This document shows, one piece after another, positions 4,513-63,492 of a stretch of 64,000 nt of DNA. The DNA is from a virus, in IMG/VR virus record IMGVR_UViG_3300008050_000030, one strand, 5' to 3'. The notes below the pieces were generated by a model, which was not told where the DNA came from, did no database searches, and was given only the letters and a program-made list of their open reading frames with translations. Both the position numbers and the translations under genes were made by a program. Within the stretch, counting starts at the first letter, position 1. The number at the start of each line of letters is the position of its first letter.

Positions 4513-4794
4513 GTGGCTCATCCGTCTGTGCAGATCCCCGTCCTGTGCGAGGGGAAGCTCCAGCCGAACCCCGCCGTCATCAGCGCCAGCGAAGGCGACG
4601 TGACGATCCTGGTGGGCGCCAGCGCGCTGGTCTACCCCCGCACCGGAGTGGTGCGTCAGCTCATCAACCACTGCTACGAGGCCGACACGGTCCTGCAGGA
4701 CCACCTCCCCTACAAGGTCAAGACCTTCCAGCTCCTGGCAGCCCTCAAGAGGCTCGGGGTGTTCGGGCAGCGAGCGCGAGGCTGTGCCGCGTGA
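4513..4794 (+). CDS. hypothetical protein (93 aa)
   Basis: GTG 5 nt after AAGGAG; overlaps the ligase start by 11 nt. Confidence 0.55.
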   Translation: MAHPSVQIPVLCEGKLQPNPAVISASEGDVTILVGASALVYPRTGVVRQLINHCYEADTVLQDHLPYKVKTFQLLAALKRLGVFGQRARGCAA

Positions 4795-6991
4795 TCTCAA
4801 ACCGCTGAAGGAGTTCGCCCCGGGCCTACCTGAGAAAGGTCGGGCCCGGGGTCTCCCTGCGGTCAAGGGGCGCCAGACCTGGGAACTGGCAGTACAAGAC
4901 CACGACGCTCATCGAGCGGGCAGGCACTTTGATCTTAGGTTGGGAGACCCCTCGACGGGTGTCGCGCACTCCTGGGCGTTGCCCAAGGCGAAGCTCCCCG
5001 GCCCCGGGGAGCGCCCCGTGCTCGCGGTACAGCAAGGCGACCACACCTTGGAGTACATGGACTTCCGCGGGAAGATCCCCTCGGGGTACGGCGCTGGGAC
5101 CGTGAAGCGGCATCTGCGGGACCAGGCGGAGGTCTTCCACGCAGATCCCGACAAGATCAAGTTCAACCACTACCGCGGCTCGGGGCACGACGAGTACATC
5201 CTGCGGCGCACCAAGGACAAGAACTGGCTGCTGCAGAACGTGACTCGGCACTCGGGGCGCACACCCGCCATGCCCAAGCCCAAGTACAAGGAGGAGAAGC
5301 GCGAGGCCCAGCTGACCCCCGAGGATGAGGGCAAGGTCTGGGCGCCGAAGGCGGACGGGTCTCACAACGTCTTCGTGCTGGAGAAGGGGAGGCCGATCCG
5401 TGCCTTCTCACACAGGCCGGCGAAGGCGCGGCGCACTGGCCTGATCGAGCACTCCCACAAGGTCCCCGGCCTGATGGACAAGAAGGTCCCCTCTCACCTG
5501 GATGGCACGATCGTCCGTGGGGAGATCTTCGCACGCCCGCATGGAGGAGGGCGACCTCTCCCTGCTGAGCGAGTCAGCGGCCTGCTCAACGCAGGGGTCT
5601 GGAAGTCCCGGAAGGGGCAGGAAGAGCACGGTCCGCTCGAGGTCATGACCTTCGACGTCGCCAGGTACCGCGGCAAGGACATGTCGGCTGCGCCCTACTC
5701 CGAGAAGCTGCGAGTGCTGAAGCAGGTCCAGGCGGAGTTCCCCGGCCTCAAGAGGACCCCAGTGGCCCGGACGAAGTCGGAGAAGCTCCAGATGCTGGAG
5801 GCCATCCGGCGCAAGGAGCACCCGCTCACCGATGAGGGCATCGTCGAGTGGGATCTCGCCGAGGGCACGAGGCCGAAGAAGTACAAGTTCAAGCCGGACG
5901 AGGACCTGGAGATCGTCGGCTTCTTCAAGACCAAGGGGGGCAAGTACGAGGGCACGCACGTCGGCGGCGTGCTGGTCAAGGACCCCAAGGGCAACGTCAG
6001 TCGTGTCGGCACCGGCTTCACCGACGACTTCCGCCGGCTGGCCCACGAGAAGCCCGAGCTCCTCATCGGGCGCACAGCCAAGATCACCTCGATGGGCAAG
6101 TACCCCAGCGGCAAGCTCCGCATCCCCTCCTTCCAGGGCTTGCACCCCGAGAAGAACGACCCCGACGACCTCAAGAAGCTCGAGGAGGCCGGGGTAACGC
6201 TGGAGCAGATGACCCGCACGAAGAAGGCGCACATCACCATCCTCACGGGCGGCATGGGAGCAGGCAAGAGCACTTGGGCCGAGAAGCATCGGGGCAAGTT
6301 CGACTTGGTCCTGGGGACAGACACGGGCAGCCCAGACGGGAAGGGCGGGTACAGCAGCCCCTCGAAAGAGACGAGGGACCGCATTCGCCAGGAGAAGGAT
6401 GAGCAGGCACTTGCGGCCCACAGGGCAGGGAAGCGAGTGTTGCTGGAGGGTTTCCCCAAGGGGATTCTCCAACACCCGAGGTCTCTGGCCGCAGCCGATC
6501 AACGGCTGGTCATGGGGACAGGGCCCGTGAGAAGGCTGTTCCGTGTCGCGAAGCGCTCAAGGCAGCGGGGAACCTCCACGCTAGAGGATTTGGCCTACGC
6601 AGCTGGGACGTTCAAAACGGACCGGGAGAGCTACAGGAAGATCAAAGAGCACGGGCCCCTCACAAAGGTGGCCTCAGCACTGCTGCGCGGGAAGACGGCC
6701 GCCCTGCTCCCACTCAACAAGCCCGTCGTCGTCTCCAAGACGAAGCAGAAGCACATCGACAGCTGGGAGAAGCGCAAGGGCAAGGAGGACCTGGTCTCGA
6801 CCAACCTGGGCACCGTGGCGTACAACCCCAGCAGGAAGACGATGCACGTGGAGTTCGCCAAGGGTGGCCTGTACAGGTACTCCGGGGTCTCCCCGGAGAC
6901 CTACGCCGGCGTGCTGAAGGCGAAGTCCCACGGCAAGCACTTCCACAAGCACGTGAAGGAGCCGGGGTTCCGGTACAGGAGGCTGGTGTGA
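4784..6991 (+). CDS. multidomain nucleic-acid repair enzyme: LigD-type 3'-phosphoesterase + ATP-dependent ligase + P-loop polynucleotide-kinase-like + KTSC domain
   Basis: PE motifs (HFDLRLGD, SWALPKA, FRGKIPSGYGAG); ligase motifs I KADG, III HLDGTIV, IV DEGIVEW, V KKYKFK, plus VGTGFTD; Walker A ILTGGMGAGKST; C-terminal KTSC-like YRYSGVSPETYAGVLKAKSHGKHF. Confidence 0.85.
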   Translation: MPRDLKPLKEFAPGLPEKGRARGLPAVKGRQTWELAVQDHDAHRAGRHFDLRLGDPSTGVAHSWALPKAKLPGPGERPVLAVQQGDHTLEYMDFRGKIPSGYGAGTVKRHLRDQAEVFHADPDKIKFNHYRGSGHDEYILRRTKDKNWLLQNVTRHSGRTPAMPKPKYKEEKREAQLTPEDEGKVWAPKADGSHNVFVLEKGRPIRAFSHRPAKARRTGLIEHSHKVPGLMDKKVPSHLDGTIVRGEIFARPHGGGRPLPAERVSGLLNAGVWKSRKGQEEHGPLEVMTFDVARYRGKDMSAAPYSEKLRVLKQVQAEFPGLKRTPVARTKSEKLQMLEAIRRKEHPLTDEGIVEWDLAEGTRPKKYKFKPDEDLEIVGFFKTKGGKYEGTHVGGVLVKDPKGNVSRVGTGFTDDFRRLAHEKPELLIGRTAKITSMGKYPSGKLRIPSFQGLHPEKNDPDDLKKLEEAGVTLEQMTRTKKAHITILTGGMGAGKSTWAEKHRGKFDLVLGTDTGSPDGKGGYSSPSKETRDRIRQEKDEQALAAHRAGKRVLLEGFPKGILQHPRSLAAADQRLVMGTGPVRRLFRVAKRSRQRGTSTLEDLAYAAGTFKTDRESYRKIKEHGPLTKVASALLRGKTAALLPLNKPVVVSKTKQKHIDSWEKRKGKEDLVSTNLGTVAYNPSRKTMHVEFAKGGLYRYSGVSPETYAGVLKAKSHGKHFHKHVKEPGFRYRRLV

Positions 6992-11800: not shown

Positions 11801-12070
11801 ATGCCCACGTACCAGTACCGGCGCGAACAGCGCGTCACCATCGAGGCAGACAACGAGGATGCCGCCTGGAAGGCCGCGGAGGAGCTGCAGCTGACCAGCC
11901 GCGATGACGAGTCGGACGACAAGGGGGAGATGGAGCTCCTCGAAGGCGAGGAGTTGCGGGACTGGGGGTGCTGCGGGTGCACCTGCTCGGTCTGCATGAA
12001 CGGCCACTCCGGCGGCGCTCACGCGGAGAACTGCGAGAAGCGGATGGCGGCGAGGCAGGCCGCGGGGTGA
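11801..12070 (+). CDS. Cys-rich small protein
   Basis: AAGGAG SD; WGCCGCTCSVCMNGH cysteine cluster. Confidence 0.65.
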   Translation: MPTYQYRREQRVTIEADNEDAAWKAAEELQLTSRDDESDDKGEMELLEGEELRDWGCCGCTCSVCMNGHSGGAHAENCEKRMAARQAAG

Positions 12071-12627
12071 GCTGGTTCCTGTACGTCGTGGAGTGCAACG
12101 CTCGCGGCAAGCCGCTGTACACCGGCATCTCGACGAACGTCGAGCAGCGCGTCAAGACCCACAACGCCGGCAAGGGCGCGAAGTACGTGAAGGGGAAGCT
12201 CCCCGTCGTCCTGGTGGCGACGTGGGAGTACCCCGACAAGAGCACTGCGCTGAGGGCCGAGATCGCCTTCAAGAGCCTGAGCCGGCTGGCCAAGCAGATC
12301 TACGTCCAGTCCCCCGATCAGTGGGACTGGGAGAATCCGAAAAGACGACGCGTTCAAGCGGATGCTGAAGAAGCTGGGATGGAGAGGGTGATGGCCAAGA
12401 CCAGGATCGTTTCGAGCAAGGAGCTGACCTCTCGGTCGCTCCGGGCCGAGGACTACGTGGACAGGGAGACCGCCTGCTGGGGCTGCGGCAAGTGGTCCTC
12501 CACGATCTACTGCCAGGGGTGCGCCGACGCCGGCAAGGCGAAGTGCCCCCACGACAAGGAGGTCACCGACTGCAACGACTGCATGGTCGAAGGCGACCTC
12601 GCCCACGACGCGAGGAGGGAGGGGTGA
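12067..12627 (+). CDS. GIY-YIG nuclease superfamily protein with C-terminal Cys-rich zinc ribbon
   Basis: WFLYVVECNARGKPLYTGISTNVEQRVKTHNAGKGAKYVKGK matches the YhbQ/UPF0213-type GIY-YIG core; GTGA overlap start. Confidence 0.75.
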   Translation: MSWFLYVVECNARGKPLYTGISTNVEQRVKTHNAGKGAKYVKGKLPVVLVATWEYPDKSTALRAEIAFKSLSRLAKQIYVQSPDQWDWENPKRRRVQADAEEAGMERVMAKTRIVSSKELTSRSLRAEDYVDRETACWGCGKWSSTIYCQGCADAGKAKCPHDKEVTDCNDCMVEGDLAHDARREG

Positions 12628-13592
12628 GGCTCAACGCCGAGCGGATCGTGACCCTGAACCTGGGGCTCGGCCGCGACTCCATCGCGATGCTGCTGTTGCT
12701 CCTCGCCGACGCCCTTGTGGTGGACGGCGAGGAGCGGGGGCAGGAGGACATCGACGTCGTCGTCTTCAGCAACACCGGCGCGGAGTGGCCCCACACTTAC
12801 GCCTTGCTGCCGCAGATCAGAGAGCTGTGCGAGAGCGTGGGGCTCCGCTTCATCGTGCTGGAGAAGCCGCCCGCGGGTGCGTGGCAGCCGTGGCTGCACG
12901 AGAAGATGTCCCAGGGCATCAGCAAGCTGCTCCAGCCCTGGACCCAGGGCGAGTGGCGGACTATCGAGGAGAAGGCGGCCTCGGGCGCCTACCACCTGCG
13001 CCCGCCCATCATCGACGACTACCGCAGCCGCAAGACGGTGGTGTCCATCAGCAAGGGAGACTGCACCGACAACCACAAGATCCAGCCCATCCGCAAGCTC
13101 ATCGCCGACCTCGCGCGTGAGCGCTTCGACGTCAAGAGCAACGCCTCCTGGGGCCACCAGGTCCGCAAGGGCACCCGGCCGACACACCTGAGCCTCATCG
13201 GCATCGCCGCGGATGAAGCCAGCCGGGCGGAGGCGGAGAGCGAGGCGCAGTACGTCAGCGAGGCCTACCCCCTTCTGGAGATGGGCATCACCAAGGCCGG
13301 CGAGAGCGAGATCTTGGAGCCTTGGGGCTTCGATCACGTCTTCAAGAGCGGCTGCTACCACTGCCCCTACCAGCCCCCGGGCTGGTACTGGGTAGTGCGC
13401 GAGACCCTGCCGGACTTCTGGCTGGAGCTCCTGGAGTACGAGGCAGCTGCCCTGGCCGAGAACCCCCGCATGTTCGTCACCGGGAAGAAGCCCCTCGCCG
13501 ATGTGGTGGAGACCTGGAGAGCCAAGAACCCGGACGCGACCATCGAGGCCGTGCTCCGCAAGTCCTACAAGCGGTGCGGACGCGCCGCATGA
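12624..13592 (+). CDS. PAPS-reductase / DndC-like ATP-pyrophosphatase family protein
   Basis: VTLNLGLGRDS PP-loop-like N-terminus; C-terminal CYHCPY cysteines; GGAGGG SD; GTGA overlap. Confidence 0.65.
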   Translation: MRLNAERIVTLNLGLGRDSIAMLLLLLADALVVDGEERGQEDIDVVVFSNTGAEWPHTYALLPQIRELCESVGLRFIVLEKPPAGAWQPWLHEKMSQGISKLLQPWTQGEWRTIEEKAASGAYHLRPPIIDDYRSRKTVVSISKGDCTDNHKIQPIRKLIADLARERFDVKSNASWGHQVRKGTRPTHLSLIGIAADEASRAEAESEAQYVSEAYPLLEMGITKAGESEILEPWGFDHVFKSGCYHCPYQPPGWYWVVRETLPDFWLELLEYEAAALAENPRMFVTGKKPLADVVETWRAKNPDATIEAVLRKSYKRCGRAA

Positions 13593-13601
13593 GGAGCCCC
13601 G

Positions 13602-13898
13602 ATGTACCACATCTGGAAGTGCCTGAACTGCAGCTGGCAAGGAGCATCTCCTGCCCCACCCGAGTACGATGGAGATCGTGCGTCCTGCCCCGACTGTGAG
13701 GGCGTTGTCACTCGGTACGAGTGCGAGTTCCCCATCAAGATCACGATCTACAACTCGAAGGTCACCCACGGGGTTGTGCAGCCCCTGACCTGCCCAGCCA
13801 ACCGCTTCATCATCGTTCACGGAGCCATTGCCTGCTTCGACTGTGGGCAGCAGCTGGTCGCGGAGACCGTGAAGGTCATCGAGGTCGAGGAGGCCTGA
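13602..13898 (+). CDS. zinc-ribbon protein
   Basis: CLNC...CPDC...CFDC motifs; GAGGAG SD. Confidence 0.65.
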   Translation: MYHIWKCLNCSWQGASPAPPEYDGDRASCPDCEGVVTRYECEFPIKITIYNSKVTHGVVQPLTCPANRFIIVHGAIACFDCGQQLVAETVKVIEVEEA

Positions 13899-13904
13899 CG
13901 GATC

Positions 13905-14105
13905 ATGGGAGACTGCACGGCTATACCAGACACCATCCTCGCCACCGTCACCGACCTCGTCCGCGACTTCCTCTACTACGGTCGCAAGGAGGACGAGGAA
14001 CTCCCTCGGGGGAAGATCGAAGAGGCCCTTGCCAACGGCGACATCACCATCGAGCAGATCGTCACGAAGTTCGAGGAGGGTCTTCGTGAGAGGGTGCCGC
14101 AGTGA
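13905..14105 (+). CDS. hypothetical small protein
   Basis: 66 aa; high GC3. Confidence 0.55.
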   Translation: MGDCTAIPDTILATVTDLVRDFLYYGRKEDEELPRGKIEEALANGDITIEQIVTKFEEGLRERVPQ

Positions 14106-14431
14106 CCGACTGGAATCCGAGGTACATCGCCTACTGCGACTCCCTCGGCCTGACCCCTGAGCAGGAGCGCGCCAGCGTCGCCGAGCGCTTCCAAGGCTCC
14201 ACCACGATGCACGAGTTCATCATCTGGATGAGCGCGCGTCAGCGGGAGTTCCAGAAGGATCGGGAGTGCATCGCCAACGAGGACCCCGACCAAGAACGCT
14301 TCTGCTTCCACATGCACATCGCCTGCGACCGCGGGCAAAACGACTGGACGGCTTGGCTCCAAGAGCGGGCGATCCAGCTTCGAGAGGGCAGACCATGGAC
14401 TTCAATCTCCGGCAGCACACCCACCTGCTGA
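14102..14431 (+). CDS. hypothetical protein
   Basis: GTGA overlap start; 3' end overlaps next gene by 37 nt. Confidence 0.55.
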   Translation: MTDWNPRYIAYCDSLGLTPEQERASVAERFQGSTTMHEFIIWMSARQREFQKDRECIANEDPDQERFCFHMHIACDRGQNDWTAWLQERAIQLREGRPWTSISGSTPTC

Positions 14432-15510
14432 CCGTTGCAGGTTCCCGTGCCTACGGTATTCACACCGAGACCAGCGACGTCGACATGGCCGGCGTCGCCA
14501 TCCCCCCGAAGGAGTACACCTACGGCTTCCTGAAGAAGTTCGACCAAGCCGTCGGCAAGAGCCACTTCGGCGCCTTCGCGCACAGGCTCCACCTCGATGA
14601 GGCCCGGGCCTCCGTGAACGGGCTGGAGGGGGTGATCTACGACCTCCGCAAGTTCATGAAGCTGGCGTCGGACTGCAACCCCAACATCCTGGACGTCCTG
14701 TTCTGTCGCGACGATGAGGTCCGGCTCATGACCCCCACCGGCGAGTGGCTGCGTGACCGCCGAGACTGGTTCCTCAGCCAGAAGGCCAAGCACACCTTCA
14801 GCGGGTACGCGATGAGCCAGCTCAAGCGCATCCGTGGGCACCGGAACTGGCTACTCAGCCCTCCGACGGCGCCGCCCTCCCGGAGCGACTTCGGTCTGCC
14901 CGAGCGCACCGTCATCCCTGCTGATCAGCGAGGGGCGGCGCTGTCCCTGGTGAAGAAGCGGATGGCCTCGTGGGACGTGGACCTGGAGGTCCTGGACAAG
15001 CCGGACCGGCTCGCGGTGAAGGGAGAGCTGGAGGCGATGATGGTCGAGCTGCAGCTCGCCTCAGACACGGAGCTGTGGCAGGCCGCGGCGCGCACTGTCG
15101 GGCTCAGCGACAACTTCATCGACCTGCTGGAGCGGGAGCGCGGCTACCGCGCGGCCATGGGCAACTGGAAGCAGTACCAGAACTGGAAGACCAGCCGGAA
15201 CCCGGCTCGCGCTGCCCTGGAGGAGAAGTACGGCTACGACACGAAGCACGGCGGGCACCTCGTCCGCCTCATGAACATGGGGCTCGAGCTGCTCCAGACG
15301 GGGGAGCTCAACGTCTGGCGCGGCGACATCGACGCCGAGTTCATCCTCAGCGTGCGCGCTGGGCACCTCCCCTACGACGAGCTCATCCAGTGGGCCGAGG
15401 ACCGGGAGGCGCTGATGGACGAGGCGGTGAAGACCTCCCCGCTGCCGAAGAGGCCGAACCGCAAGAAGCTGGACGAGCTCTGCGTCCAGCTGATCGAGTC
15501 GAATCTGTAG
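14395..15510 (+). CDS. Pol-beta-superfamily nucleotidyltransferase (pfam10127-like)
   Basis: GSRAYGIHTETSDVDMAGVA is the NTase G-S...D-x-D signature; GAGGG SD before ATG. Confidence 0.7.
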   Translation: MDFNLRQHTHLLTVAGSRAYGIHTETSDVDMAGVAIPPKEYTYGFLKKFDQAVGKSHFGAFAHRLHLDEARASVNGLEGVIYDLRKFMKLASDCNPNILDVLFCRDDEVRLMTPTGEWLRDRRDWFLSQKAKHTFSGYAMSQLKRIRGHRNWLLSPPTAPPSRSDFGLPERTVIPADQRGAALSLVKKRMASWDVDLEVLDKPDRLAVKGELEAMMVELQLASDTELWQAAARTVGLSDNFIDLLERERGYRAAMGNWKQYQNWKTSRNPARAALEEKYGYDTKHGGHLVRLMNMGLELLQTGELNVWRGDIDAEFILSVRAGHLPYDELIQWAEDREALMDEAVKTSPLPKRPNRKKLDELCVQLIESNL

Positions 15511-15520
15511 ACGGAGAGCA

Positions 15521-16268
15521 CATGACCGAAGATCTGGACCGCTTCACCGCGGGCACGCACCCCTTCGCCTTGGTCCGCCGGGCCCCTCCCGAGTTGTTGG
15601 GGGCCCGGCGGAGCCACGAGGACGTCGAGAAGCTGCTGATGGGGGTGACGAGCTCGGACCTGCGCTATGCCTACCAGGACCCCAACTACGCCATCGTCCG
15701 GGGCTTCTCCGAGGAGAGGCTCAAGGAGCTGGGGATCGGCTACGACCTGGACCTGGGCGGCCACGAGTGGTCGAACCCTGCTCCGGATCACCCGCTCGTC
15801 AACGACTGCTGTGCGCTGTGGGAGAGCCCGGACCTGGACTACCTCGGCCTGCAGGACGTCGCGGGGTGGGACGTCGACCTCTGCGCCTTCGCTCCGAACT
15901 CGGGGCACTTCCAAGCGACGCGGTGGCCGCCCACCATGAGGGTGGACGGGGATCCCTACGATCTGGTCGGGCAGGGGATCTACTCCGAGACCGACCACGA
16001 CTGCATCTGCCACGGCGGCCTGGAGTACTGGACCGGCGCCGCCGGCGAACCCAAGGAGCCCATCACCCTCGACCAGCTCGGCGAGTGGTCGGAGAAGGGG
16101 GCGCTGCCCCCGAACATGCTCGCCGACGCCCTTCGTTGGAAGGGCCTGGCCTACTGGAAGTGCTCCGGCAACGTCGGAGACATCCCCTACCCCCTCTGTG
16201 ATCGCTGTGAAGGCGATGGACACGTCACCTCCCCTGGAGGGGAGTGGGCGCTCTACAGGAGAACCTGA
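15521..16268 (+). CDS. hypothetical protein (249 aa)
   Basis: GTAGACGGAGAGCACATG initiation context; high GC3. Confidence 0.7.
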
Positions 16269-16798
16269 TGCAGATTCTGACCGCCCCCCTCGTGGTGGCT
16301 GACCTCGACCTCGTGCAGGTCGTCCTCTGGAAGAAGGCCGTCGACTCGGCCCTGAACAAGGTGTCCGCCGAGGACACGGAGCTGCTTTGCGGCTTGCTCG
16401 ACTTCCTCAACGCTCTGCACGACGCCCACCCGGGCCTGGAGGACACCGCTCGAGCTGCCGAAGCCCTCACCGGCGAGGAGGAGCAGGACAACCTCGCTCC
16501 CGACGCCGTCGACCCCGACTTCGACCCGATGGCCATGCGCCACTGTGCCCAGGTCGGCCCCTTCGGCACGGAGGTCCCCTCCACCACGGACTTCGGCAAG
16601 AAGTACCGGGTCGAGTACACGGCCTACGGCAAGTGGGTCTGCTCCTGCCCCAACTTCCAGCAGCGCGGGGCGGTCTGCAGCCACATCAACACGGTGCAGT
16701 CGTCGCGATGCGACTGGCACCAGCTGCTCCACGGTGACGCCGCCAAGGCCCCCGACTACAAGTGCCCCAAGTGCGGCGGGCCGACCAGCGAGGTGTGA
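16268..16798 (+). CDS. SWIM zinc-finger protein
   Basis: CSCPNFQQRGAVCSHI fits the SWIM C-x-C-xn-C-x-H motif; AGGAGAACCTGATG context. Confidence 0.7.
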   Translation: MQILTAPLVVADLDLVQVVLWKKAVDSALNKVSAEDTELLCGLLDFLNALHDAHPGLEDTARAAEALTGEEEQDNLAPDAVDPDFDPMAMRHCAQVGPFGTEVPSTTDFGKKYRVEYTAYGKWVCSCPNFQQRGAVCSHINTVQSSRCDWHQLLHGDAAKAPDYKCPKCGGPTSEV

Positions 16799-16799
16799 G

Positions 16800-17759
16800 A
16801 TGCAGACCGACGACGAGCTGTACGCGAGCCTTGTGCTCCCCTGGGAGGCCGACAACGCCTCCTCCATCAACATCCAGGGCGCCGACGACCTCGACGCGGC
16901 GCTGACGATGGCGGACCTGGACTGGACCGCGGCGAGCCGCCCGCTCCTGTTCCGGGATCCCGACGACGAGACCAACCTGATCGAGGTGGAGACCCACAAG
17001 GCGGTGGTGCGGGAGGACACGCTGGACCAGATCGGCGTGGTCGGTGTCACCTACGAGATCGTGCAGAACCGAGAGGCTCTGTCCCTGCTCCGCGGCATCG
17101 CCGGCCGGGGCAAGGACCTCACCTTCGTCCGAGGAGGCACCTTCAAGGAGGGCCGGGTCGTCTGGGTGATGCTCAGCATCGACGACTTCCTCATCGAGCC
17201 GGTGCCGGGAGACGTGCTCATCCCCTACATCCTCATCTCGAACAGCCACAACGGCAGTCAGGGGGTGCGAGCCACGTTCTCGGCCCACCGACACGCCGGG
17301 CTGAGCGTGCACAACGTCGGTCGGGGGCTGAGTTTCCGGCACACGAGGCACGTGGTCGATCGGATGGAGCGCGGGGAGAGCGTCCTGGCCGCCGGGCTGG
17401 ACTCCTTCGAGCGGTTCCACGACTTCGCCCTCGACCTGGCGCAGCAACCGATGCCGCAGGAGGACTGGGAGGCCTTCCTGGACGCCTTCATCCCGCCCCC
17501 GGAGGAGGGAGTCCGCCCTGGGCGCCGCAACAAGGCCAGGGCGACGCTCACGCGCCTCTTCGAGTCCGGGCCGGGCACGGACATCCCGGGTGTCAAGAAG
17601 ACGCGCTGGGCGGCGCTCAACGCCGTCTCGCTGTGGCAGACGCACTTCGCCTCGTCCAAGGACGGGGAGAAGGCCCTGAACTCGCTCTGGTTCCAGAGCG
17701 GGGCGTCCAAGCTGGACGTGGCGGCAGGCCTGCTGAGGAAGCTGCACGCGGTGCGGTGA
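16800..17759 (+). CDS. DUF932-like phage/plasmid-associated protein
   Basis: ILISNSHNGSQGVRATFSAHR resembles the DUF932 core; last gene of the + block. Confidence 0.65.
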   Translation: MQTDDELYASLVLPWEADNASSINIQGADDLDAALTMADLDWTAASRPLLFRDPDDETNLIEVETHKAVVREDTLDQIGVVGVTYEIVQNREALSLLRGIAGRGKDLTFVRGGTFKEGRVVWVMLSIDDFLIEPVPGDVLIPYILISNSHNGSQGVRATFSAHRHAGLSVHNVGRGLSFRHTRHVVDRMERGESVLAAGLDSFERFHDFALDLAQQPMPQEDWEAFLDAFIPPPEEGVRPGRRNKARATLTRLFESGPGTDIPGVKKTRWAALNAVSLWQTHFASSKDGEKALNSLWFQSGASKLDVAAGLLRKLHAVR

Positions 17760-29852: not shown

Positions 29853-29965
29853 GATCTTCTCCGGGGAAGGGGTTCACACCTCTTATCCCCCCATACCAAC
29901 TGGAAGTTGTCAGCTAAGCAGGAGCGAGGGGGGACCCTCGCTGCGACTGCTTTCGGCCCGCCCCC

Positions 29966-30285
29966 CTAGAAGGGGGACAGGTCTTCCAGCCCGGTTCCGA
30001 ACCGGGCCCGGACTGCGTCCCACACGCGGCACGCCGCGTAGTACGGCAGCCCAATGGGTGCCGTCACCACCAGCAGGGCGGCCATGCCCGCGCGCTGCCA
30101 GCCCGACTCCGACGAGTCGGAGGCGAACCCGACCCCGGTCCCGTACAGGGACCCGAGCATCCTCGTCACCGTGACGGTGATGAAGGAGGCGGCGGCGAGA
30201 GCCAGCGGCCGGAGCGCTGCCGTGAGGCAGCGGGTCAGCAGGGTGGCGATGAACTTGGCGAGGAACTTGGCGATGGTCTTCATAT
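29966..30285 (-). CDS. small membrane protein (MKTIA-family paralog)
   Basis: MKTIAKFLAKFIATLL; CCCTGGAGTTCGATATG context. Confidence 0.6.
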
Positions 30286-30563
30286 CGAACTCCAGGGAAC
30301 GAAGACGGCAGGGGCGCGAGAAAACCTCGCAAAGCCTCCTGTTGGTGACACTTCTCTTATCCCCGAAACACCCCCTTTTTCTGCACTTTGCAGCTGCCCT
30401 CACGCCTCCCCATCGAGCGGGTAAGTGTGCCCCTCGGCCCCGGTCAAGGGGCGCGTTTGACGGGCGGGCCGCCCGAGCTATTGCTCCCAGAGTCAGCCAG
30501 GGGTTATTGCCCCTGACCTGTCGCGCGGGGATCGAACCCGCCTCCCTTCACACCTGTCGTCAG

Positions 30564-31151
30564 CTACCCAGCCGGACTCGAACCGGCCCTTTCCTGGATC
30601 GTCTGCTCTCGGTACCAGCACCAGTAGGTCTCGGTGTGGTGCCGCCGCCATGGGTTGTGCCCTTCCGGCTTCGGCACCAAGTCCCAGGCGACCCCGCGGC
30701 TGTGGGTGCGCCGAGGCCGCTGCTTGCAGCCGGGGTCGGGGTCGTGGATGCCCCAGTACTCCGACTTCAGCGCGTAGCAGTAGACGCGGCCCCTCCCTCG
30801 GCCCCAGCGGATGGCCTGATCGATCTCCCAGGGCAGGTCCGCCTCGGCGATCTCAGGCAGGTACCCGTGCTCCTCCACCAGCCGAGTGAGCATCCTCTGG
30901 CCCAGCGCCCTCCTCTCTGCCTTCGTCATCGGGATGAGCGGAGGCCGGGAGGGGAACTTGGGGAGCTCGCCCTCCCAGAGCCGCTTGCAGTCCCCGCAGA
31001 CGTCCTCGGCGAAGATGGACTCGAGCGGGCGCTCGACAGGGTCCTTGGGCAGCGCGTTGTGGTCGACGCCGGCGATGTGCGCCTTGCCTGTGTTCCACGG
31101 GTCCTTCAGGCCGAGCTGGTACTCGGTACGCCGGGCCTGGATGAACCTCAT
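30564..31151 (-). CDS. Cys/His-rich hypothetical protein, possibly HNH-like
   Basis: CGDC...CYALKSEYWGIHDPDPGC...H..H; preceded by a 12-codon uORF. Confidence 0.6.
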   Translation of the reverse strand: MRFIQARRTEYQLGLKDPWNTGKAHIAGVDHNALPKDPVERPLESIFAEDVCGDCKRLWEGELPKFPSRPPLIPMTKAERRALGQRMLTRLVEEHGYLPEIAEADLPWEIDQAIRWGRGRGRVYCYALKSEYWGIHDPDPGCKQRPRRTHSRGVAWDLVPKPEGHNPWRRHHTETYWCWYREQTIQERAGSSPAG

Positions 31152-31817: not shown

Positions 31818-31990
31818 CGGTCTTCTCCTTGTTGTGCGCGGTCACGCCCCGGCTGCGATGACGGCGACGAAGCCCGGGTCGGGACCGAAGTACCAGTAGA
31901 TCCGAGCACTCTTCCTTCTTGCCGAGTTCGATCACGTCTGTCTCCAGTTGGGTGTACCCGCCTTATCCCGTGAACAACTGTCGGTTGCTA

Positions 31991-32061
31991 ATCAGCGAGG
32001 GGGACTCGAACCCCCAACATCTCCTTTGCGCGGGAGGGCTCTACCATTGAGCTATCTCTGA
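31991..32061 (-). tRNA. tRNA-like gene with defective anticodon arm
   Basis: Canonical D-arm TAGCTCAATGGTAGAGC and T-arm GGGGGTTCGAGTCCCCC; acceptor stem with one A-G mismatch; anticodon arm is only CTCC/GGAG with an 8-nt loop lacking U33; no encoded CCA. Confidence 0.5.
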
Positions 32062-32097
32062 CACTCTTCTTATCCCCTCAACAACTCCCAGTTGACG

Positions 32098-32298
32098 CTA
32101 AGCGCAGAGCCCCTCGAAGAGGGGGTGCGCAGTCGTCTCAGGACAGATCGGAGAGCACGAGGAGGACCAGCCAGCGCCGGCCCCCTCACGCCAGATGACG
32201 TAGTCCTTGCCTTCGTGGCGGTGGGTCCCGCATCGGCGGGCGGTGCGGGGCGGCTTGTCCACGATCACCGCCACCCCCAGCCGGGTCTTGACCCTCAT
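32098..32298 (-). CDS. small Cys/His protein (66 aa)
   Basis: ATGA-coupled; stop TAG lies inside the CTTAGC element. Confidence 0.5.
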   Translation of the reverse strand: MRVKTRLGVAVIVDKPPRTARRCGTHRHEGKDYVIWREGAGAGWSSSCSPICPETTAHPLFEGLCA

Positions 32299-34562: not shown

Positions 34563-35012
34563 TCAGCCCCTATCCCAAGGAGGCACGGGGTTGCCGGCTC
34601 CCCAGGGGTGCTCCCACCTGGACCGCATGCGGCGAATCGCGTCCAGAGGGACCCCATGGCTGTTCCGCTTGAACAGCTGCTCGTCGGTGAGCCCTCCGTC
34701 GAAGAGGTCGACGATGAAGGTCTTCAGGCGGAGAGGGGAGTCGGAGAGCTGGAGGTAGGGCTCCAGCTCCCACCGAGTGCTGAAGGTGTTGGCCACCGCG
34801 GTGATGGGCTGCCCGGCCAGGACCGACTCCTGGGCGCCCTTGATGCACTGGGCGTGGGCCTGCGCCAGCTCCTGCGGCTTGAAGGTGTACGTGCCGTCCT
34901 CCGCGGTGAAGTAGTCGTCGGCCGAGAAGATGGCGGCGTCGAGGAGGTGAGCGAAGGAGGTCTTCCCCGAGCCGGGGAGGCCTCGAACGAGAATCAAGAT
35001 CTGGTCAGTCAT
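34563..35012 (-). CDS. P-loop kinase (AAA_33 / polynucleotide-kinase-like)
   Basis: ILVRGLPGSGKTSFAHLL Walker A near N-terminus; about 150 aa; ATGA-coupled. Confidence 0.7.
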   Translation of the reverse strand: MTDQILILVRGLPGSGKTSFAHLLDAAIFSADDYFTAEDGTYTFKPQELAQAHAQCIKGAQESVLAGQPITAVANTFSTRWELEPYLQLSDSPLRLKTFIVDLFDGGLTDEQLFKRNSHGVPLDAIRRMRSRWEHPWGAGNPVPPWDRG

Positions 35013-36997: not shown

Positions 36998-37477
36998 TCA
37001 GGCGGCCTTGGCTTCTCGCGCCTTCTTGGCCTTCTTGGCCCGGCAGGTGCGGCAGTGGGACTGCGCGGCGACGCGGACCTTCTCGCCCTCCTTCTTCGTC
37101 TTCGTCTTCATGTTGCGGTAGCCGAACATCTTCGCGATGTCGCCCGTCTCGTTGCAGCTGGGGCAGGTCTTCTCGCCCGTCGGCCCACCCGTCGGCGTCT
37201 TCCGCTTCGCCGGCGTCTTCTTCGCCTTGGCCTTCTTGGCCGGCGCCTTCTTGGGCTTGGCGGCCGGGGCCTCGTCCGCGGCCAGCAGCTTGGTCAGCCG
37301 CGTCTGCGCGGGCTTCACGACGAGGACGCGGGCCTCTCGGGGCTCCACGCCGGCGTCGGTGTCCCCGACGAGGGCACGCAGCACATCGACGTTGTCCTCC
37401 TTGCGGACGGCGTTGCGGGCGTCGACGCCCCGCATGCCCAGGATCTCGGTGATGCGGTCTTCGGTGGTCTGGCTCAT
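36998..37477 (-). CDS. lysine-rich nucleoid-associated-like protein with C-terminal zinc ribbon
   Basis: AKPKKAPAKKAKAKKTPAKRK tract; CPSC...CRTC; N-terminal SAP/Rho_N-like helix. Confidence 0.7.
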   Translation of the reverse strand: MSQTTEDRITEILGMRGVDARNAVRKEDNVDVLRALVGDTDAGVEPREARVLVVKPAQTRLTKLLAADEAPAAKPKKAPAKKAKAKKTPAKRKTPTGGPTGEKTCPSCNETGDIAKMFGYRNMKTKTKKEGEKVRVAAQSHCRTCRAKKAKKAREAKAA

Positions 37478-38399: not shown

Positions 38400-38879
38400 T
38401 CAGGGGCAGTTCTCGTTCACGAACTCACGAGCTTCATCGGGCCGCAACTCGGCCCCGAAGTAGTCCTCCCGGGCGAAGGTCGTCTCCACGAGATCGTGTC
38501 CGTGGCGCCCCCAGCTGTGGGATCGCCAGACCCCGTCGTCGAGGCAGTATCCGGTGATGAGGACGAGCCTCTCGTCGAGAAGCCACTCGTGGGAGATGTT
38601 GGAGTGGCAGCGTCCGGCCTCCCCCTCCCGGAGCTGGATCTTCTCCGGGCGGTAGGGCTGGCCGCGCTCGAGGAGGATCTTCAGATGCTCCTCGATGCCG
38701 TTGACGCAGATCTCTTCCCCTCCCTCAGCGAGGAGCACCTCCCGCAGTCTTGCCAGCGCCGGCTGCACGCGTAGGGCGCTCTCGTACCTCGATCTCAGGA
38801 AGGTCAGTTGTCGTGGGGTCATCAGGCAGTCGTTGCTGAAGGAGTCGTTGAGCGCGCTTCGGCTCGGTTCCGAAGGCAC
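38400..38879 (-). CDS. hypothetical protein (GTG 38879 or ATG about 38822)
   Basis: Strong GC3; +1 frame relative to the 3' tail of the sigma factor ORF. Confidence 0.55.
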   Translation of the reverse strand: MPSEPSRSALNDSFSNDCLMTPRQLTFLRSRYESALRVQPALARLREVLLAEGGEEICVNGIEEHLKILLERGQPYRPEKIQLREGEAGRCHSNISHEWLLDERLVLITGYCLDDGVWRSHSWGRHGHDLVETTFAREDYFGAELRPDEAREFVNENCP

Positions 38880-39816
38880 CGCGCACTGCGCCGGCGGAGA
38901 CGCCGGGAGGGAGCACGGTCTCGGTCAAGATCTCGTAGGACTCCGCCATCCCGGCCAGAGAGCCTTCCAGCTCTCGGACACGGGCGCGCAGAGCCGCCAC
39001 GGTGTACAGGTCGTCCTCGGTCATTCCCTCCGCCATCTCGGCCATCTTCTTCATGGCCCGCAGCTCAAGTTGTCGTACACGTTCGCGAGTCAGGCCCATG
39101 TCGGTCCCGACCATCTCCAGGGAGTCGCCTTCCTTCACGAGCGAGGGGTGGCCGCCAGGAAGCATCCTTCGCCGAAGGATGATGTACCGCTCTCTCGCCG
39201 GAAGAGCCCCCAGGAGCATGCGGACGACCAGTTCTCGTCGAGAGGCTCGCCACTGGATGTCGTAGGCGTCCTCGGGGGTGTGTCGGTCGATGAACAGCTG
39301 GTGAGGAGGGCGGTCCTCGTCCCCCAGATCTTCTCGCTGCTCCCACCGCAGAACGGCCTGGAGCCGGATGAGGTCCTCCACGGGGCGGCCCACATCCTTG
39401 GACAGGCTCTCCATGAACTTGTCGTCTCCCAGGGTCTCCGAGACGGAGTTCCCGGTCTTCATCATGTGCCGGGTGATGCGAACCAAGGCCGCTTGTGCCC
39501 AGGAGGAGCGAGTGGCCTTGAACTGGTCCTTTTCGAGGCGGCGGTAGCGCTGGAGAAACGCCTTGATCCAGTGGTAGCAGTAGGTGGACAGGCGGGCCTT
39601 CTCGGGGTCGTACTTCAGCACGGCTCGGTGGAACCCCATGGCGACCTCCTGGAAGGCGTCATCCGGGTCCAGACCCTTGCCGTGCGTGTGCACCATCTTC
39701 CAGAACAACTGCACGTACGAGCGCGTGAGCGTGTTCATGGCGTTCGAGTCCCCCGCCTGTGCAGCGCGAGCAAGCCGGTCCTGCTCCTCTGCCGGGAAGG
39801 GAGGTAAGGGGGTCAT
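38725..39816 (-). CDS. RNA polymerase sigma factor, sigma-70 family
   Basis: Region 2 (STYCYHWIKAFLQRY) and region 4 (GLTRERVRQLELRAMKKMAE); GCTGGAGGTGCCGATG context; coding GC3 fades after about 38880. Confidence 0.8.
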   Translation of the reverse strand: MTPLPPFPAEEQDRLARAAQAGDSNAMNTLTRSYVQLFWKMVHTHGKGLDPDDAFQEVAMGFHRAVLKYDPEKARLSTYCYHWIKAFLQRYRRLEKDQFKATRSSWAQAALVRITRHMMKTGNSVSETLGDDKFMESLSKDVGRPVEDLIRLQAVLRWEQREDLGDEDRPPHQLFIDRHTPEDAYDIQWRASRRELVVRMLLGALPARERYIILRRRMLPGGHPSLVKEGDSLEMVGTDMGLTRERVRQLELRAMKKMAEMAEGMTEDDLYTVAALRARVRELEGSLAGMAESYEILTETVLPPGVSAGAVRGAFGTEPKRAQRLLQQRLPDDPTTTDLPEIEVRERPTRAAGAGKTAGGAPR

Positions 39817-58159: not shown

Positions 58160-58321
58160 GTCGGGCCTCGGAGACCCTCTTGATCGTCTCGAACTCCTCT
58201 CGGGACACCAGCTGCCGCTCCGCCACGGTCAGGTGGGAGTACTCCCACTTGATGTCCTTGAAGTAGTAGTGGCTGAGCTTCAGCAGCGCGATCAGCGCGG
58301 CCTTCTCGTCGTCGGTCATGG
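58149..58321 (-). CDS. hypothetical small protein
   Basis: AAGGA SD; ATGA-coupled to the ligase. Confidence 0.5.
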
Positions 58322-59797
58322 CAGTCCTTGGAGCTTCGAGTTGACGCACTCCTCCACTTCCTTGTCGTCGCGGAAGGCGACGATGCGGGGGTGGATCATG
58401 GCGTTGGTCTTGCCCCCCTCGGAGACGTAGAAGCGCGTGGAGTACTCCACGCGCACGACCAGGGGGTAGAGGTCAGGGTCGGCCAGGTTGGCTTTGTTCT
58501 CCTTCGTCAGGCCGCCTCCGCAGTCGCAGAGGTAGATCAGGTCGCCATCGTCGGTGAGCTGGTGCAGCGCCACGCTGCCCACCTGCCCCTGGTACTTCCC
58601 CGTGCCCCAGGTGCCGAGGCCCTGGTCCGGCTCCCAGTAGGCGATGCAGTCGTCCTCGTAGACCGGCTTGAGCTTCCCAGTGAACTTGCCCGGCCGGTCC
58701 GGCTTGCCGCGGAAGTTGTAGGCCCGATCGCCGAAGACGCCCTTGGGGTCGACGACCACCCAGCCCTCCCAGCCGTTGTACTGCGCGAGGGCTCGGGCGA
58801 TCTGGTCGAGGTGGACCACCACCTCCTCCTTGCCCCCGCCCTCCATGAGGACGGCCGTCGGGAAGAGGGACCGTCGCTTGGAGTAGCGGAGCTCGCGCCC
58901 CTCCTGACCGGCGGCCCAGATCACCGCGCGGATGCCCTCCTCCCAGACCTGCTTGGGGGTGAGGGTCTGCAGAGGGAGCAGCCACTGCGCGTCCTTGGTG
59001 AGCTCCTCGATGGTCCCCATGCGCTCCGAGAAGGTGCGCGTGGTCCCCACCATCTCCCCGTCCCACGCCCCGATGTCCCAGACGTACATCGAGAGCCAGG
59101 GGTTGCCTCCGGACTGCTGGAGCTGGAGCGCCTTGTTGGTGTAGGACTTGGTGACCTGCTGGACGAAGGCGAAGTCGTCCTTGCCTCCTCGGTCGGCGAC
59201 GAGCTCCCCCAGCAGGATGGAGTTCGGAGGGATGACGCCCTCCCGCAGCATCACGAGGACCTCCTCGTAGAGCATGGGGAAGCGCTCGGCCCAGAGGCGG
59301 TAGCTCTCCCCCTCCGCCTCTCGGTCATGGGTGGGCCGCATCCGACGGCTGTAGATCTCCACGTCGTCGTCGGTGGTGCGGATGACGTGCATCATCCCCT
59401 CGCGCTTCCGCCCGAAGAGCACGCCCTTGCCCAGCAGCACCTTCTTGAGGAGCGTGGCGGACAGCGTGTTGTCCGGCTTGTAGAAGCAGAGGGAGAGCGG
59501 CAACTGCTCGTCGGGGAGCAGGGCGATGGGGGCCGCGTCCTCGCCGTCCTCGAGGTACCCCTTGTACACCTGCAGCATGATCTTTCGGGCGGCCCGGTCC
59601 AGGGCGTAGTCCTCGGCGTCGATCTCGTTGGACTTGCCCACGTTGATGGCGCTGTAGGTGTGGGAGGTCTCCTGCATGGCGCCCCCGAGGACGCCGTGGG
59701 TGGTGGTTTCGGTCGCGCCGTCGACGCGGATGGTCCAGGCCAGCGTGTGCTTGCGGCCCTTCTGTCGGAACTCGCGGGTCTCACCCGTCCAGGCCAT
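58316..59797 (-). CDS. ATP-dependent DNA (or RNA) ligase
   Basis: Motif I KREGMMHVIR...IYSRR; III LLGELV; IV EGWVVVDPKG; V GKLKPV; VI HPRIVAFRDDKEVEE. Confidence 0.75.
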   Translation of the reverse strand: MAWTGETREFRQKGRKHTLAWTIRVDGATETTTHGVLGGAMQETSHTYSAINVGKSNEIDAEDYALDRAARKIMLQVYKGYLEDGEDAAPIALLPDEQLPLSLCFYKPDNTLSATLLKKVLLGKGVLFGRKREGMMHVIRTTDDDVEIYSRRMRPTHDREAEGESYRLWAERFPMLYEEVLVMLREGVIPPNSILLGELVADRGGKDDFAFVQQVTKSYTNKALQLQQSGGNPWLSMYVWDIGAWDGEMVGTTRTFSERMGTIEELTKDAQWLLPLQTLTPKQVWEEGIRAVIWAAGQEGRELRYSKRRSLFPTAVLMEGGGKEEVVVHLDQIARALAQYNGWEGWVVVDPKGVFGDRAYNFRGKPDRPGKFTGKLKPVYEDDCIAYWEPDQGLGTWGTGKYQGQVGSVALHQLTDDGDLIYLCDCGGGLTKENKANLADPDLYPLVVRVEYSTRFYVSEGGKTNAMIHPRIVAFRDDKEVEECVNSKLQGLP

Positions 59798-60404
59798 CGT
59801 CTGCTCCTTCGCTCAGCTTCAGCTGCTTCTGGTTCTCGCACCAGGCGTGGTAGCCCAGGCGGGTGTCGCCGTTGGCGACTTCGTACTGCCAGTCCTTCGA
59901 GGGGTTGGTCGGGTCCTCCTCCCAGTGGCCGGGCGTCTCGGCCTTCAGGCTGTCCTCCTGGTCGCGGATCCAGCTCTGGGTGCCTCCCCAGCGGATGTCG
60001 TCGCGCAGGATGAAGCAGGCCCAGCCCCCGTGCTCCCCCTGGCGGAGCTTGTCGCAGGTGAAGGCGCCCTCGACCCAGAGGTAGGGGTACTCCTCCTCGT
60101 CCAGGCCCGTGAGGATGTGCTGAAGGAGGGTCGCCCCGTCCTCCGAGAGGCCGTATTCGCAGAAGAGGTAGAACTTGCCGCCCTGGGGCTCGAAGTCCAG
60201 TCGCCCGTCGCGGTACTCGTAGGTGAGGCCCAGGGCAATGGCCTTGCGGTCGAGAGCGAGCTGTTCGGTGTTCTCGGGGTCGAGGACCGTGCCGTCGTCG
60301 AAGTCGATCGCGGCGTCGTCGGGGTCCCAGCGAAGGAGGTCCTGTTGGGCCTCGGTCAAGGGGAGGAGAGGGGAAACGGTCCCCTGGGAGTGGTTGTTGG
60401 CCAT
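59781..60404 (-). CDS. hypothetical acidic protein (207 aa)
   Basis: High GC3; coupled downstream to the ligase. Confidence 0.65.
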   Translation of the reverse strand: MANNHSQGTVSPLLPLTEAQQDLLRWDPDDAAIDFDDGTVLDPENTEQLALDRKAIALGLTYEYRDGRLDFEPQGGKFYLFCEYGLSEDGATLLQHILTGLDEEEYPYLWVEGAFTCDKLRQGEHGGWACFILRDDIRWGGTQSWIRDQEDSLKAETPGHWEEDPTNPSKDWQYEVANGDTRLGYHAWCENQKQLKLSEGADDGLDG

Positions 60405-63092: not shown

Positions 63093-63172
63093 TCTCTATC
63101 TCCAGGTGCACACGGGGAACGGCCCGTATACTGCTCAAGTTGTGATGGCCACCGTCTGGCCGGGAGTCTTGA
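63093..63172. promoter_or_regulatory. divergent intergenic region (MVP-like gene / + gene)
   Basis: 80 bp containing GTATAC and CAACTTGAGCAG half-site-like sequences. Confidence 0.4.
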
Positions 63173-63370: not shown

Positions 63371-63492
63371 TGAACGCTCGAGACCTCTACCCTATGGTCG
63401 CACGGGGCGCCGGCGGTGGAGGTATGCACCGTTCTCTGCAGTACGGGGCTTATCCCCGGCATCCCGTGGGTCTTTCGCGGTAGGAGTCGTTC

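Follow-up and report, generated by a model that had tools for sequence, protein, structure and literature searches.

Altered anticodon loops in phage-encoded tRNAs have been put forward as a means of resisting the anticodon nucleases of the host (van den Berg et al. 2023, eLife, PMC10264068), and VapC4 of M. tuberculosis is an anticodon-loop nuclease specific for tRNA-Cys (PMC13657306). No frameshifting is known for the yeast mitochondrial and phage tRNAs whose loops have 8 nt or are otherwise non-standard (Atkins et al. 2016, PMC5009743). In the A site SufB2 uses triplet pairing, and mechanistic work shows the same for expanded loops (PMC7803779). The nucleotidyltransferase RlaP, which extends damaged RNA 3' ends by one or two nucleotides and is required for restoring repaired tRNA (PMC12776372), co-occurs in large phages with ligases, kinases, and substitute tRNAs (PMC7824862).

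We analyzed a 64,000-nt stretch of viral DNA (IMG/VR record IMGVR_UViG_3300008050_000030; the window) that belongs to a metagenome contig of 188,377 bp and ~67% GC (ENA ERZ27249009 k141_382418), and conclude with high confidence that it carries a genuine phage tRNA gene, with a promoter of its own, in which the body is canonical and the anticodon arm is not. The reading that we favor, tentatively and at a probability of roughly 0.35, is that the gene yields an expressed Cys-type tRNA with a remodeled loop, that UGC and UGU are read as triplets, and that the shape of the loop may protect it from anticodon-loop nucleases. The literature leans the same way, as 8-nt loops are compatible with triplet decoding (PMC7803779, PMC5009743) and anticodon-nuclease evasion has been proposed for phage tRNAs (PMC10264068), with VapC4 as a case of such a nuclease (PMC13657306).

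The tRNA gene occupies positions 31991-32061 of the minus strand, is 71 nt long including the discriminator U73, and was found by both ARAGORN and Rfam. It reads UCAGAGA-UA-GCUC-AAUGGUA-GAGC-C-CUCC-CGCGCAAA-GGAG-AUGUU-GGGGG-UUCGAGU-CCCCC-UCGCUGA-U. The acceptor stem (UCAGAGA/UCGCUGA, 32061-32055/31998-31992) contains one A5.G68 mismatch, the D-arm (GCUC-AAUGGUA-GAGC, 32052-32038) carries A14, A15, G18, G19, and A21, and the T-arm (GGGGG-UUCGAGU-CCCCC, 31999-32015) is evident both in the sequence and in the ARAGORN drawing; the gene ends with the discriminator U at 31991, and CCA is not encoded. The tertiary core is canonical at these D-arm bases as it is at U8, A15:U48, C13-G22 with G46, U54, U55, C56, A58, and G53-C61. 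Outside the anticodon arm, 17 of the 18 stem pairs and every tertiary-core base are intact, and the departures from a canonical tRNA consist of the A5.G68 mismatch and the anticodon arm itself. The cloverleaf is the minimum-energy fold of the isolated 71 nt and makes up 55% of the ensemble, with a folding-energy z-score against shuffles of -0.77, unremarkable as is usual for single tRNAs. Detection by two independent methods and the canonical core both favor a Cys decoder, while the A5.G68 mismatch and a suboptimal U1-A72 pair count against it.

An earlier note on this DNA, made from the sequence alone, had described the same D- and T-arms and an acceptor stem with a single A-G mismatch, and proposed scoring with a covariance model. 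That scoring gives 45.4 bits for Rfam RF00005 against a gathering score of 29 (E = 1.8e-6 for the whole window), in an alignment that bypasses the anticodon loop through a local end and covers the rest. In phage tRNA arrays, 64 bona fide tRNAs score from 32.7 to 70.6 bits with a median near 56, so that the value obtained here, with the loop skipped by the model, is inside the phage range but at its low end, in the bottom tenth. That it falls within this range despite the skipped loop speaks for the Cys decoder; its low rank, together with the fact that this is the only Rfam tRNA in the 64 kb, is also what would be seen if the gene were decaying, that is, if a once canonical tRNA had acquired at least two anticodon-arm lesions and lost decoding, its promoter and body reflecting recent inactivation. 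We regard decay as a real possibility, slightly less probable than the Cys decoder. No Rfam family other than tRNA, bacterial Y RNA/YrlA included, matched the window at the gathering score or at E <= 5, and the gene is a compact 71-nt cloverleaf, whereas in YrlA-type Y RNAs a Ro-binding helix is attached to the tRNA-like domain.

The anticodon arm (32021-32036) consists of a 4-bp stem, CUCC (32036-32033) paired with GGAG (32024-32021), and the 8-nt loop CGCGCAAA (32032-32025), as read from the sequence and drawn by ARAGORN. At 16 nt it is one nucleotide short of the canonical 17. The 5' side of the loop contains no U, at the U33 position or elsewhere, and the GCA triplet is followed by an A; the arm thus lacks the full set of features of a canonical elongator, namely a 5-bp anticodon stem, a 7-nt loop, U33, and a purine at 37. 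ARAGORN places a tRNA-??? at 31990-32062 and assigns it a 4-base anticodon, cgca, with the label 'tRNA-?(Ala|Cys)(cgca)' in its full output, and the possible anticodons are GCA (Cys, in the 3'-stacked register), CGC (Ala, in the 5' register), and the quadruplet CGCA. The short stem, the 8-nt loop, the absence of U33, and the missing nucleotide had all been pointed out in the earlier note, which would have taken a normal tRNA call on rechecking as the sign of a sequencing error; both ARAGORN and Rfam return a non-canonical anticodon arm. The loop complement TTTGCGCG has a single occurrence in the window, at 32025-32032, which is the loop itself. A regulatory kissing-loop role was therefore rejected, as the window holds no second site complementary to the tRNA loop.

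All single-base insertions and deletions across the anticodon arm were generated, and ARAGORN was rerun on each. In no case were a 5-bp stem, a 7-nt loop, and U33 obtained at once, although many or most edits turned the call into Cys(gca) or Ala(cgc). The arm is therefore not the product of a one-base sequencing slip, and it lies at least two events from canonical. An assembly or sequencing artifact of a canonical tRNA might be suspected from the short C and G runs of the arm and from the origin of its DNA in one metagenome assembly (Illumina/megahit), other contigs having been compared through the products of the flanking genes. This explanation is barely credible given the outcome of the indel series; in addition, Illumina/megahit assemblies rarely introduce indels, and both flanking genes are found on three long contigs (the two others of 20-50 kb) with identical products.

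The arm bears on the decay of the gene in two ways. It is off-canonical in at least two independent respects, its length and the missing U33, and the acceptor stem adds a mismatch. The near-complete set of stem pairs and core bases outside the arm argues against decay, and the lesions are restricted to the region where changes for nuclease evasion are expected (PMC10264068). With about three lesions only, their clustering in the arm is statistically indecisive in both directions. For the Cys decoder, the loss of U33 and the 4-bp stem amount to a double defect that weighs against function. We know of no characterized functional precedent for this combination.

The tRNA gene stands within a series of promoter cassettes. 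The octamer GGGATAAG occurs in 21 copies, all on the minus strand, against 0.4 expected, and the copies span positions 18515-42423 of the window, with a further one at 63449-63456. In an alignment of the 21 copies, a GC-rich hairpin is followed by CTTAGC, CAACTnnnAGTTG, 5-7 nt, and GGGATAAG, then by a stretch of about 7 nt with AGT(A/G) at its end, the conserved leader ACCaCCAACCCCTGGAG, a gap of 5-8 nt, and ATG. The cassette includes an SD, and nearly every gene of the 18515-42423 block has its own promoter. The cassette upstream of the tRNA (32062-32102, minus strand) has the full consensus, with CTTAGC at 32102-32097, CAACTGGGAGTTG at 32094-32082, GGGATAAG at 32076-32069, and the AGT motif; the 7-nt spacer aagagtg (32068-32062) that separates GGGATAAG from the tRNA ends in G(-1), which ARAGORN draws paired with U73 as an eighth acceptor pair. 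Position +1 of the tRNA is 8 nt past GGGATAAG, which in the 20 sister copies is exactly the start of the conserved leader. In sigma-70-family promoters the start site usually lies 6-8 nt from the -10 element, and from this spacing we infer transcription from G(-1) or U(+1). The full-consensus cassette with +1 at the leader onset favors a Cys decoder, and a full-consensus promoter copy that exactly abuts the 5' end of the tRNA counts against decay.

Downstream, the next cassette and its leader (31936-31991, minus strand) begin within the tRNA, as the TTAGC box starts from the discriminator (31991-31987) and is followed by AGTTG; the downstream GGGATAAG (31969-31962) starts 21 nt past the discriminator and is followed by the leader ACACCCAACUGGAG and a GTG start at 31935. 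The compound GC-rich hairpin at 32102-32130 (minus strand), downstream of the preceding ORFs, is terminator-like in its predicted fold and has no U tract; similar hairpins stand before other cassettes. Because the next TTAGC box starts at the discriminator and its GGGATAAG follows 21 nt on, the tRNA is, as far as the sequence can be read, a stand-alone transcription unit between a terminator-like hairpin and the next promoter. The two flanking cassette promoters claimed in the earlier note are borne out by the count of 21 against 0.4, and the tRNA begins 7 nt past the upstream copy. A sigma-70 consensus promoter was looked for and not found, and the idea was rejected.

No terminator was found between the tRNA and the next cassette, so that a transcript reading through would begin with the tRNA. 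This arrangement, like the strong promoter that the gene has to itself, would suit a tRNA mimic that decodes nothing and either draws off, as a bait or sponge, a host nuclease directed at tRNA or another factor that binds tRNA, or gives the downstream mRNA a structured 5' element or a signal for processing. We consider this unlikely. Direct evidence for it is lacking, the window contains no complementary target of the loop, neither Y RNA/YrlA nor any other tRNA-like family of Rfam is matched, and a decoy would have no need of the retained U73, GCA, and A37-like purine.

The phage encodes its own sigma factor (38725-39816, minus strand; 363 aa, with Sigma70 r2 and r4 by gene call and Pfam), which likely reads the GGGATAAG cassettes. 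Its homologs, apart from itself, are bacterial sigma-70-family proteins, mostly primary sigma factors, at <=35% identity, with the exception of one short local match. The nearest ones include proteins of Rubrobacteraceae and Gaiellaceae MAGs at about 30% identity, which suggests an Actinomycetota host, and the genome is most likely that of a large phage of an actinobacterial host. The window otherwise encodes an endolysin and mostly ORFan genes.

The bases that bear on amino-acid identity were considered one by one. Cysteine identity depends mainly on U73 and a GCA anticodon. The tRNA has U73, as a tRNA-Cys should, and G-C-A-A-A adjoins the 3' strand of the anticodon stem, as it does in canonical tRNA-Cys; the register is ambiguous in an 8-nt loop, as reflected in the Ala|Cys call of ARAGORN. 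With the 3' side of the anticodon stacked on the stem, the triplet is GCA, and the 5' bridge has three bases, not two. Alanyl-tRNA synthetase needs G3:U70, whereas pair 3-70 is A-U here, and alanine identity is excluded on that ground. Arginine identity normally needs A20, and position 20 is a U; glycine identity needs C35-C36 together with G1-C72/C2-G71/G3-C70. The tRNA is thus probably of the cysteine type, an assignment that rests on identity elements (U73, GCAAA, no G3:U70) and not on ancestry. These same elements, with the Ala|Cys label, favor the Cys decoder; the body of the tRNA speaks against it. In global similarity the tRNA reaches at best 9 against 8 phage tRNA-Cys genes and 22 against Gly(GCC)-type tRNAs, so that the body does not resemble that of a tRNA-Cys but is a generic class-I body nearest to Gly(GCC)-type phage tRNAs.

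Codon use was counted over 87 genes called heuristically by GC3 (16,444 codons). Cys makes up 13.4 per 1000 codons, with UGC used 194 times and UGU 27 times, a demand that favors a Cys decoder. At 1.34% of codons, Cys seems frequent for a genome so rich in GC. CxxC pairs occur in several small proteins, for example those encoded at 16244-16798 and 36998-37477.

The earlier note had also raised a frameshift-suppressor-like tRNA, and this suggestion found no support. As a +1 suppressor or quadruplet decoder, the tRNA would read UGCG with CGCA, or slip after UGC, and so express frameshifted genes. An 8-nt loop and a 4-base anticodon call are what such a tRNA would show, and expanded loops are able to cause +1 frameshifting (PMC7803779; PMC9094753). 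The 87 called genes of the 64-kb window show no avoidance of in-frame UGC-G, which accounts for 69 of the 194 UGC codons (35.6%) compared with 37% for other NNC codons (p = 0.71), so that efficient reading of UGCG would affect dozens of the phage's genes and damage many of its proteins. A scan for coding signal continuing in the +1 frame returned 14 junctions, all of them ordinary gene boundaries with start codons; the sole one containing TGCG reads GAGGTG-TGA-G-ATG. No gene needing a +1 shift was thus found within the 64-kb window of the 188-kb contig, which is the span of these data. Suppressors combine a 5-bp stem with an 8-nt loop, whereas here the 8-nt loop sits on a 4-bp stem in an arm of 16 nt, not the classical 18, without U33. 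Frameshift suppression is accordingly highly improbable.

Perfect T-arm look-alikes, with a 5-bp stem and a TTCRANN loop, occur four times in the window, all on the minus strand, against 0.23 expected, and one of the four is that of the tRNA. The three others start at 30587, 30541, and 28677, 1.4-3.3 kb downstream of the tRNA. One lies inside the 3' end of the ORF 30564-31151; those at 30541 and 28677 are identical (GCGGG-TTCGATC-CCCGC) and occupy terminator positions. Rfam finds no tRNA at these hairpins, which may be what is left of an earlier tRNA cluster or may work as T-arm mimics at 3' ends. Two further ARAGORN calls, a tRNA-Pro(cgg) at 29953-30029 and a 95-nt tRNA-Thr(ggt) at 30563-30657 (both minus strand), overlap ORF 3' ends, are poorly drawn, have no Rfam match at E <= 5, and are probably false. 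The isolated T-arm-like hairpins and the two dubious calls together resemble tRNA debris, as expected from decay, and as possible relics of a decayed cluster the three look-alikes would favor a pseudogene over a Cys decoder. Their enrichment at terminator positions (4 vs 0.23) would also suggest that the phage makes use of tRNA-like modules, as the tRNA-mimic explanation supposes.

Odd anticodon loops are not confined to this gene. Among 398 ARAGORN tRNA calls in the viral contigs fetched by our probes, eight (2%) have loops other than 7 nt, five of 6 nt and three of 8 nt, so that the tRNA belongs to a recurrent minority among phage tRNAs and is not a unique find. Annotators often treat odd-loop tRNA calls as non-functional. 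The recurrence of such calls at about 2% in viral contigs counts against the Cys decoder and is compatible with decay. An unrelated contig (IMGVR_UViG_3300019762_000012, positions 1559-1641) carries another 'tRNA-?(Ala|Cys)', with the 6-nt loop UUGCAA, U73, and 48.4 bits in Rfam.

The phage is a previously unseen high-GC phage of a near-singleton lineage. Close homologs of the immediate upstream neighbor gene and of the sigma factor were searched among 5.8 billion proteins, and both retrieved only themselves. GenBank phages gave no close match in megablast and blastn, only weak tRNA-level matches, and PLSDB plasmids gave none; in tblastn, one of two window proteins matched distant DNA ligases and the other nothing. 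IMG/VR returned no member of the family of this phage when probed with the exact tRNA, an arm-anchored pattern, and both flanking proteins, nor with the cassette, promoter-plus-T-arm, and two-sequence protein-alignment probes. The loop-anchored pattern and the cassette probe gave single chance matches only in genome contigs, and a metagenome scan with a D-arm/T-arm pattern gave, among the matches listed, only unrelated tRNA-Lys(UUU) genes.

One true relative was reached through the AAA_33 kinase-like gene; its kinase is 72% identical, and it has the same gene order, 66% GC, and the GGGATAAG cassette. It has been assembled four times (L170-L173: ENA ERZ27249081 k141_433276 and JGI 3300025141, 3300002514, and 3300025131), and L170 contains five copies of GGGATAAG. 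All four contigs end about 0.3-0.7 kb downstream of the kinase gene, before the tRNA locus, probably because they break at the repeated cassette. In more distant phages that carry the kinase, the cassette is absent and no tRNA lies nearby. A near-singleton lineage whose only relative has contigs that stop before the locus weighs against the Cys decoder.

The earlier note had linked the tRNA to repair enzymes, and this holds for some of the genes. RlaP (14161-15510, in the plus-strand run 11968-17759) and the AAA_33 kinase-like gene (34563-35012), which lies 2.5 kb away from the tRNA, are in keeping with RNA repair. By sequence the ligases resemble LigD-type DNA ligases, and a strong RNA-repair reading of them was rejected on that ground; they comprise a fusion of LigD 3'-phosphoesterase, ligase OB, and KTSC domains (4604-6991, plus strand) and a second ligase-like gene. 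The run 11968-17759 encodes, besides RlaP, a GIY-YIG nuclease, a PAPS-reductase-like protein (phrog_424), and a DUF932 protein, and together with 4604-6991 it looks like a nucleic-acid repair or conflict island. Elsewhere, an 868-aa vault-like protein (60489-63095, minus strand; major-vault-protein shoulder E = 2.6e-25, vault-repeat 4.8e-10), an unusual phage cargo, adjoins a weakly ligase-like 498-aa protein (58316-59812, minus strand).

This repair gene context fits a phage that expects attacks on tRNA, though it is no proof of that. The presence of RlaP and the kinase-like protein favors the Cys decoder, and it would also indicate the tRNA-damage conflict in which a tRNA mimic could act. 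On a bolder interpretation, which we think quite unlikely, the gene is a deliberately re-architected anti-tRNase tRNA, either an uncuttable Cys decoder or a tRNA-shaped bait, made almost leaderless from a phage-sigma promoter, and it may act with the T-arm look-alikes found where transcripts would end and with the set of RlaP, kinase, and ligase.

For the expressed Cys-type tRNA that we favor, a course of events can be proposed. The phage sigma factor would transcribe the gene from its GGGATAAG cassette, starting at the mature 5' end or 1 nt before it, and the near-leaderless transcript would require little or no trimming by RNase P. Host enzymes would trim the 3' side and add CCA. Through U73 and a G-C-A-A-A run stacked against the stem's 3' strand, the product could be a substrate of cysteinyl-tRNA synthetase. 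It would then decode UGC and UGU as triplets, providing Cys capacity to a phage that uses UGC almost exclusively, while the abnormal 5' half of its loop might spare it from efficient cleavage by the anticodon-loop nucleases of the host, of which a tRNA-Cys-targeting kind is known in actinobacteria. If functional, the gene would mean that phages can go beyond single loop bases and reshape the anticodon arm itself, in stem length, loop size, and loss of U33, while retaining a tRNA that is usable or protective; it would widen the known range of counter-defense against tRNA-cleaving immunity and offer a natural test case for the tolerance of the ribosome and CysRS to anticodon-arm distortion. If a relic, it would be an example of phage tRNA gene decay and a warning against taking ARAGORN 4-base anticodons as frameshift suppressors.

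The locus can finally be compared with systems described elsewhere. In Nanoarchaeum equitans, leaderless tRNA genes are transcribed from position +1; the promoter described here likewise places the predicted start at -1/+1 of the tRNA, but that start is deduced from the GGGATAAG spacing and from the leader onset in sister cassettes. The 8-nt-loop tRNAs of yeast mitochondria and phages resemble this one in having an enlarged loop in an otherwise tRNA-like molecule. As far as is known, they keep a 5-bp stem and U33, whereas here the stem has 4 bp and the arm is one nucleotide shorter than canonical, not longer. The classical +1 suppressors sufD, sufA6, and SufB2 (PMC7803779) share the 8-nt anticodon loop, but arose by insertion of one base into a canonical arm, giving 18 nt, and were selected against a specific frameshift mutation; the present tRNA has a 16-nt arm, no U33, and neither a target site nor an avoidance signature was found for it in the window. 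The phage tRNAs of van den Berg et al. differ in that theirs are substitutions within a 7-nt loop relative to a known host tRNA, whereas here loop size and stem length are altered and U33 is lost. With those tRNAs it nevertheless shares a phage-borne gene, changes in the anticodon loop, a canonical body, and a genome that carries RNA-repair genes.
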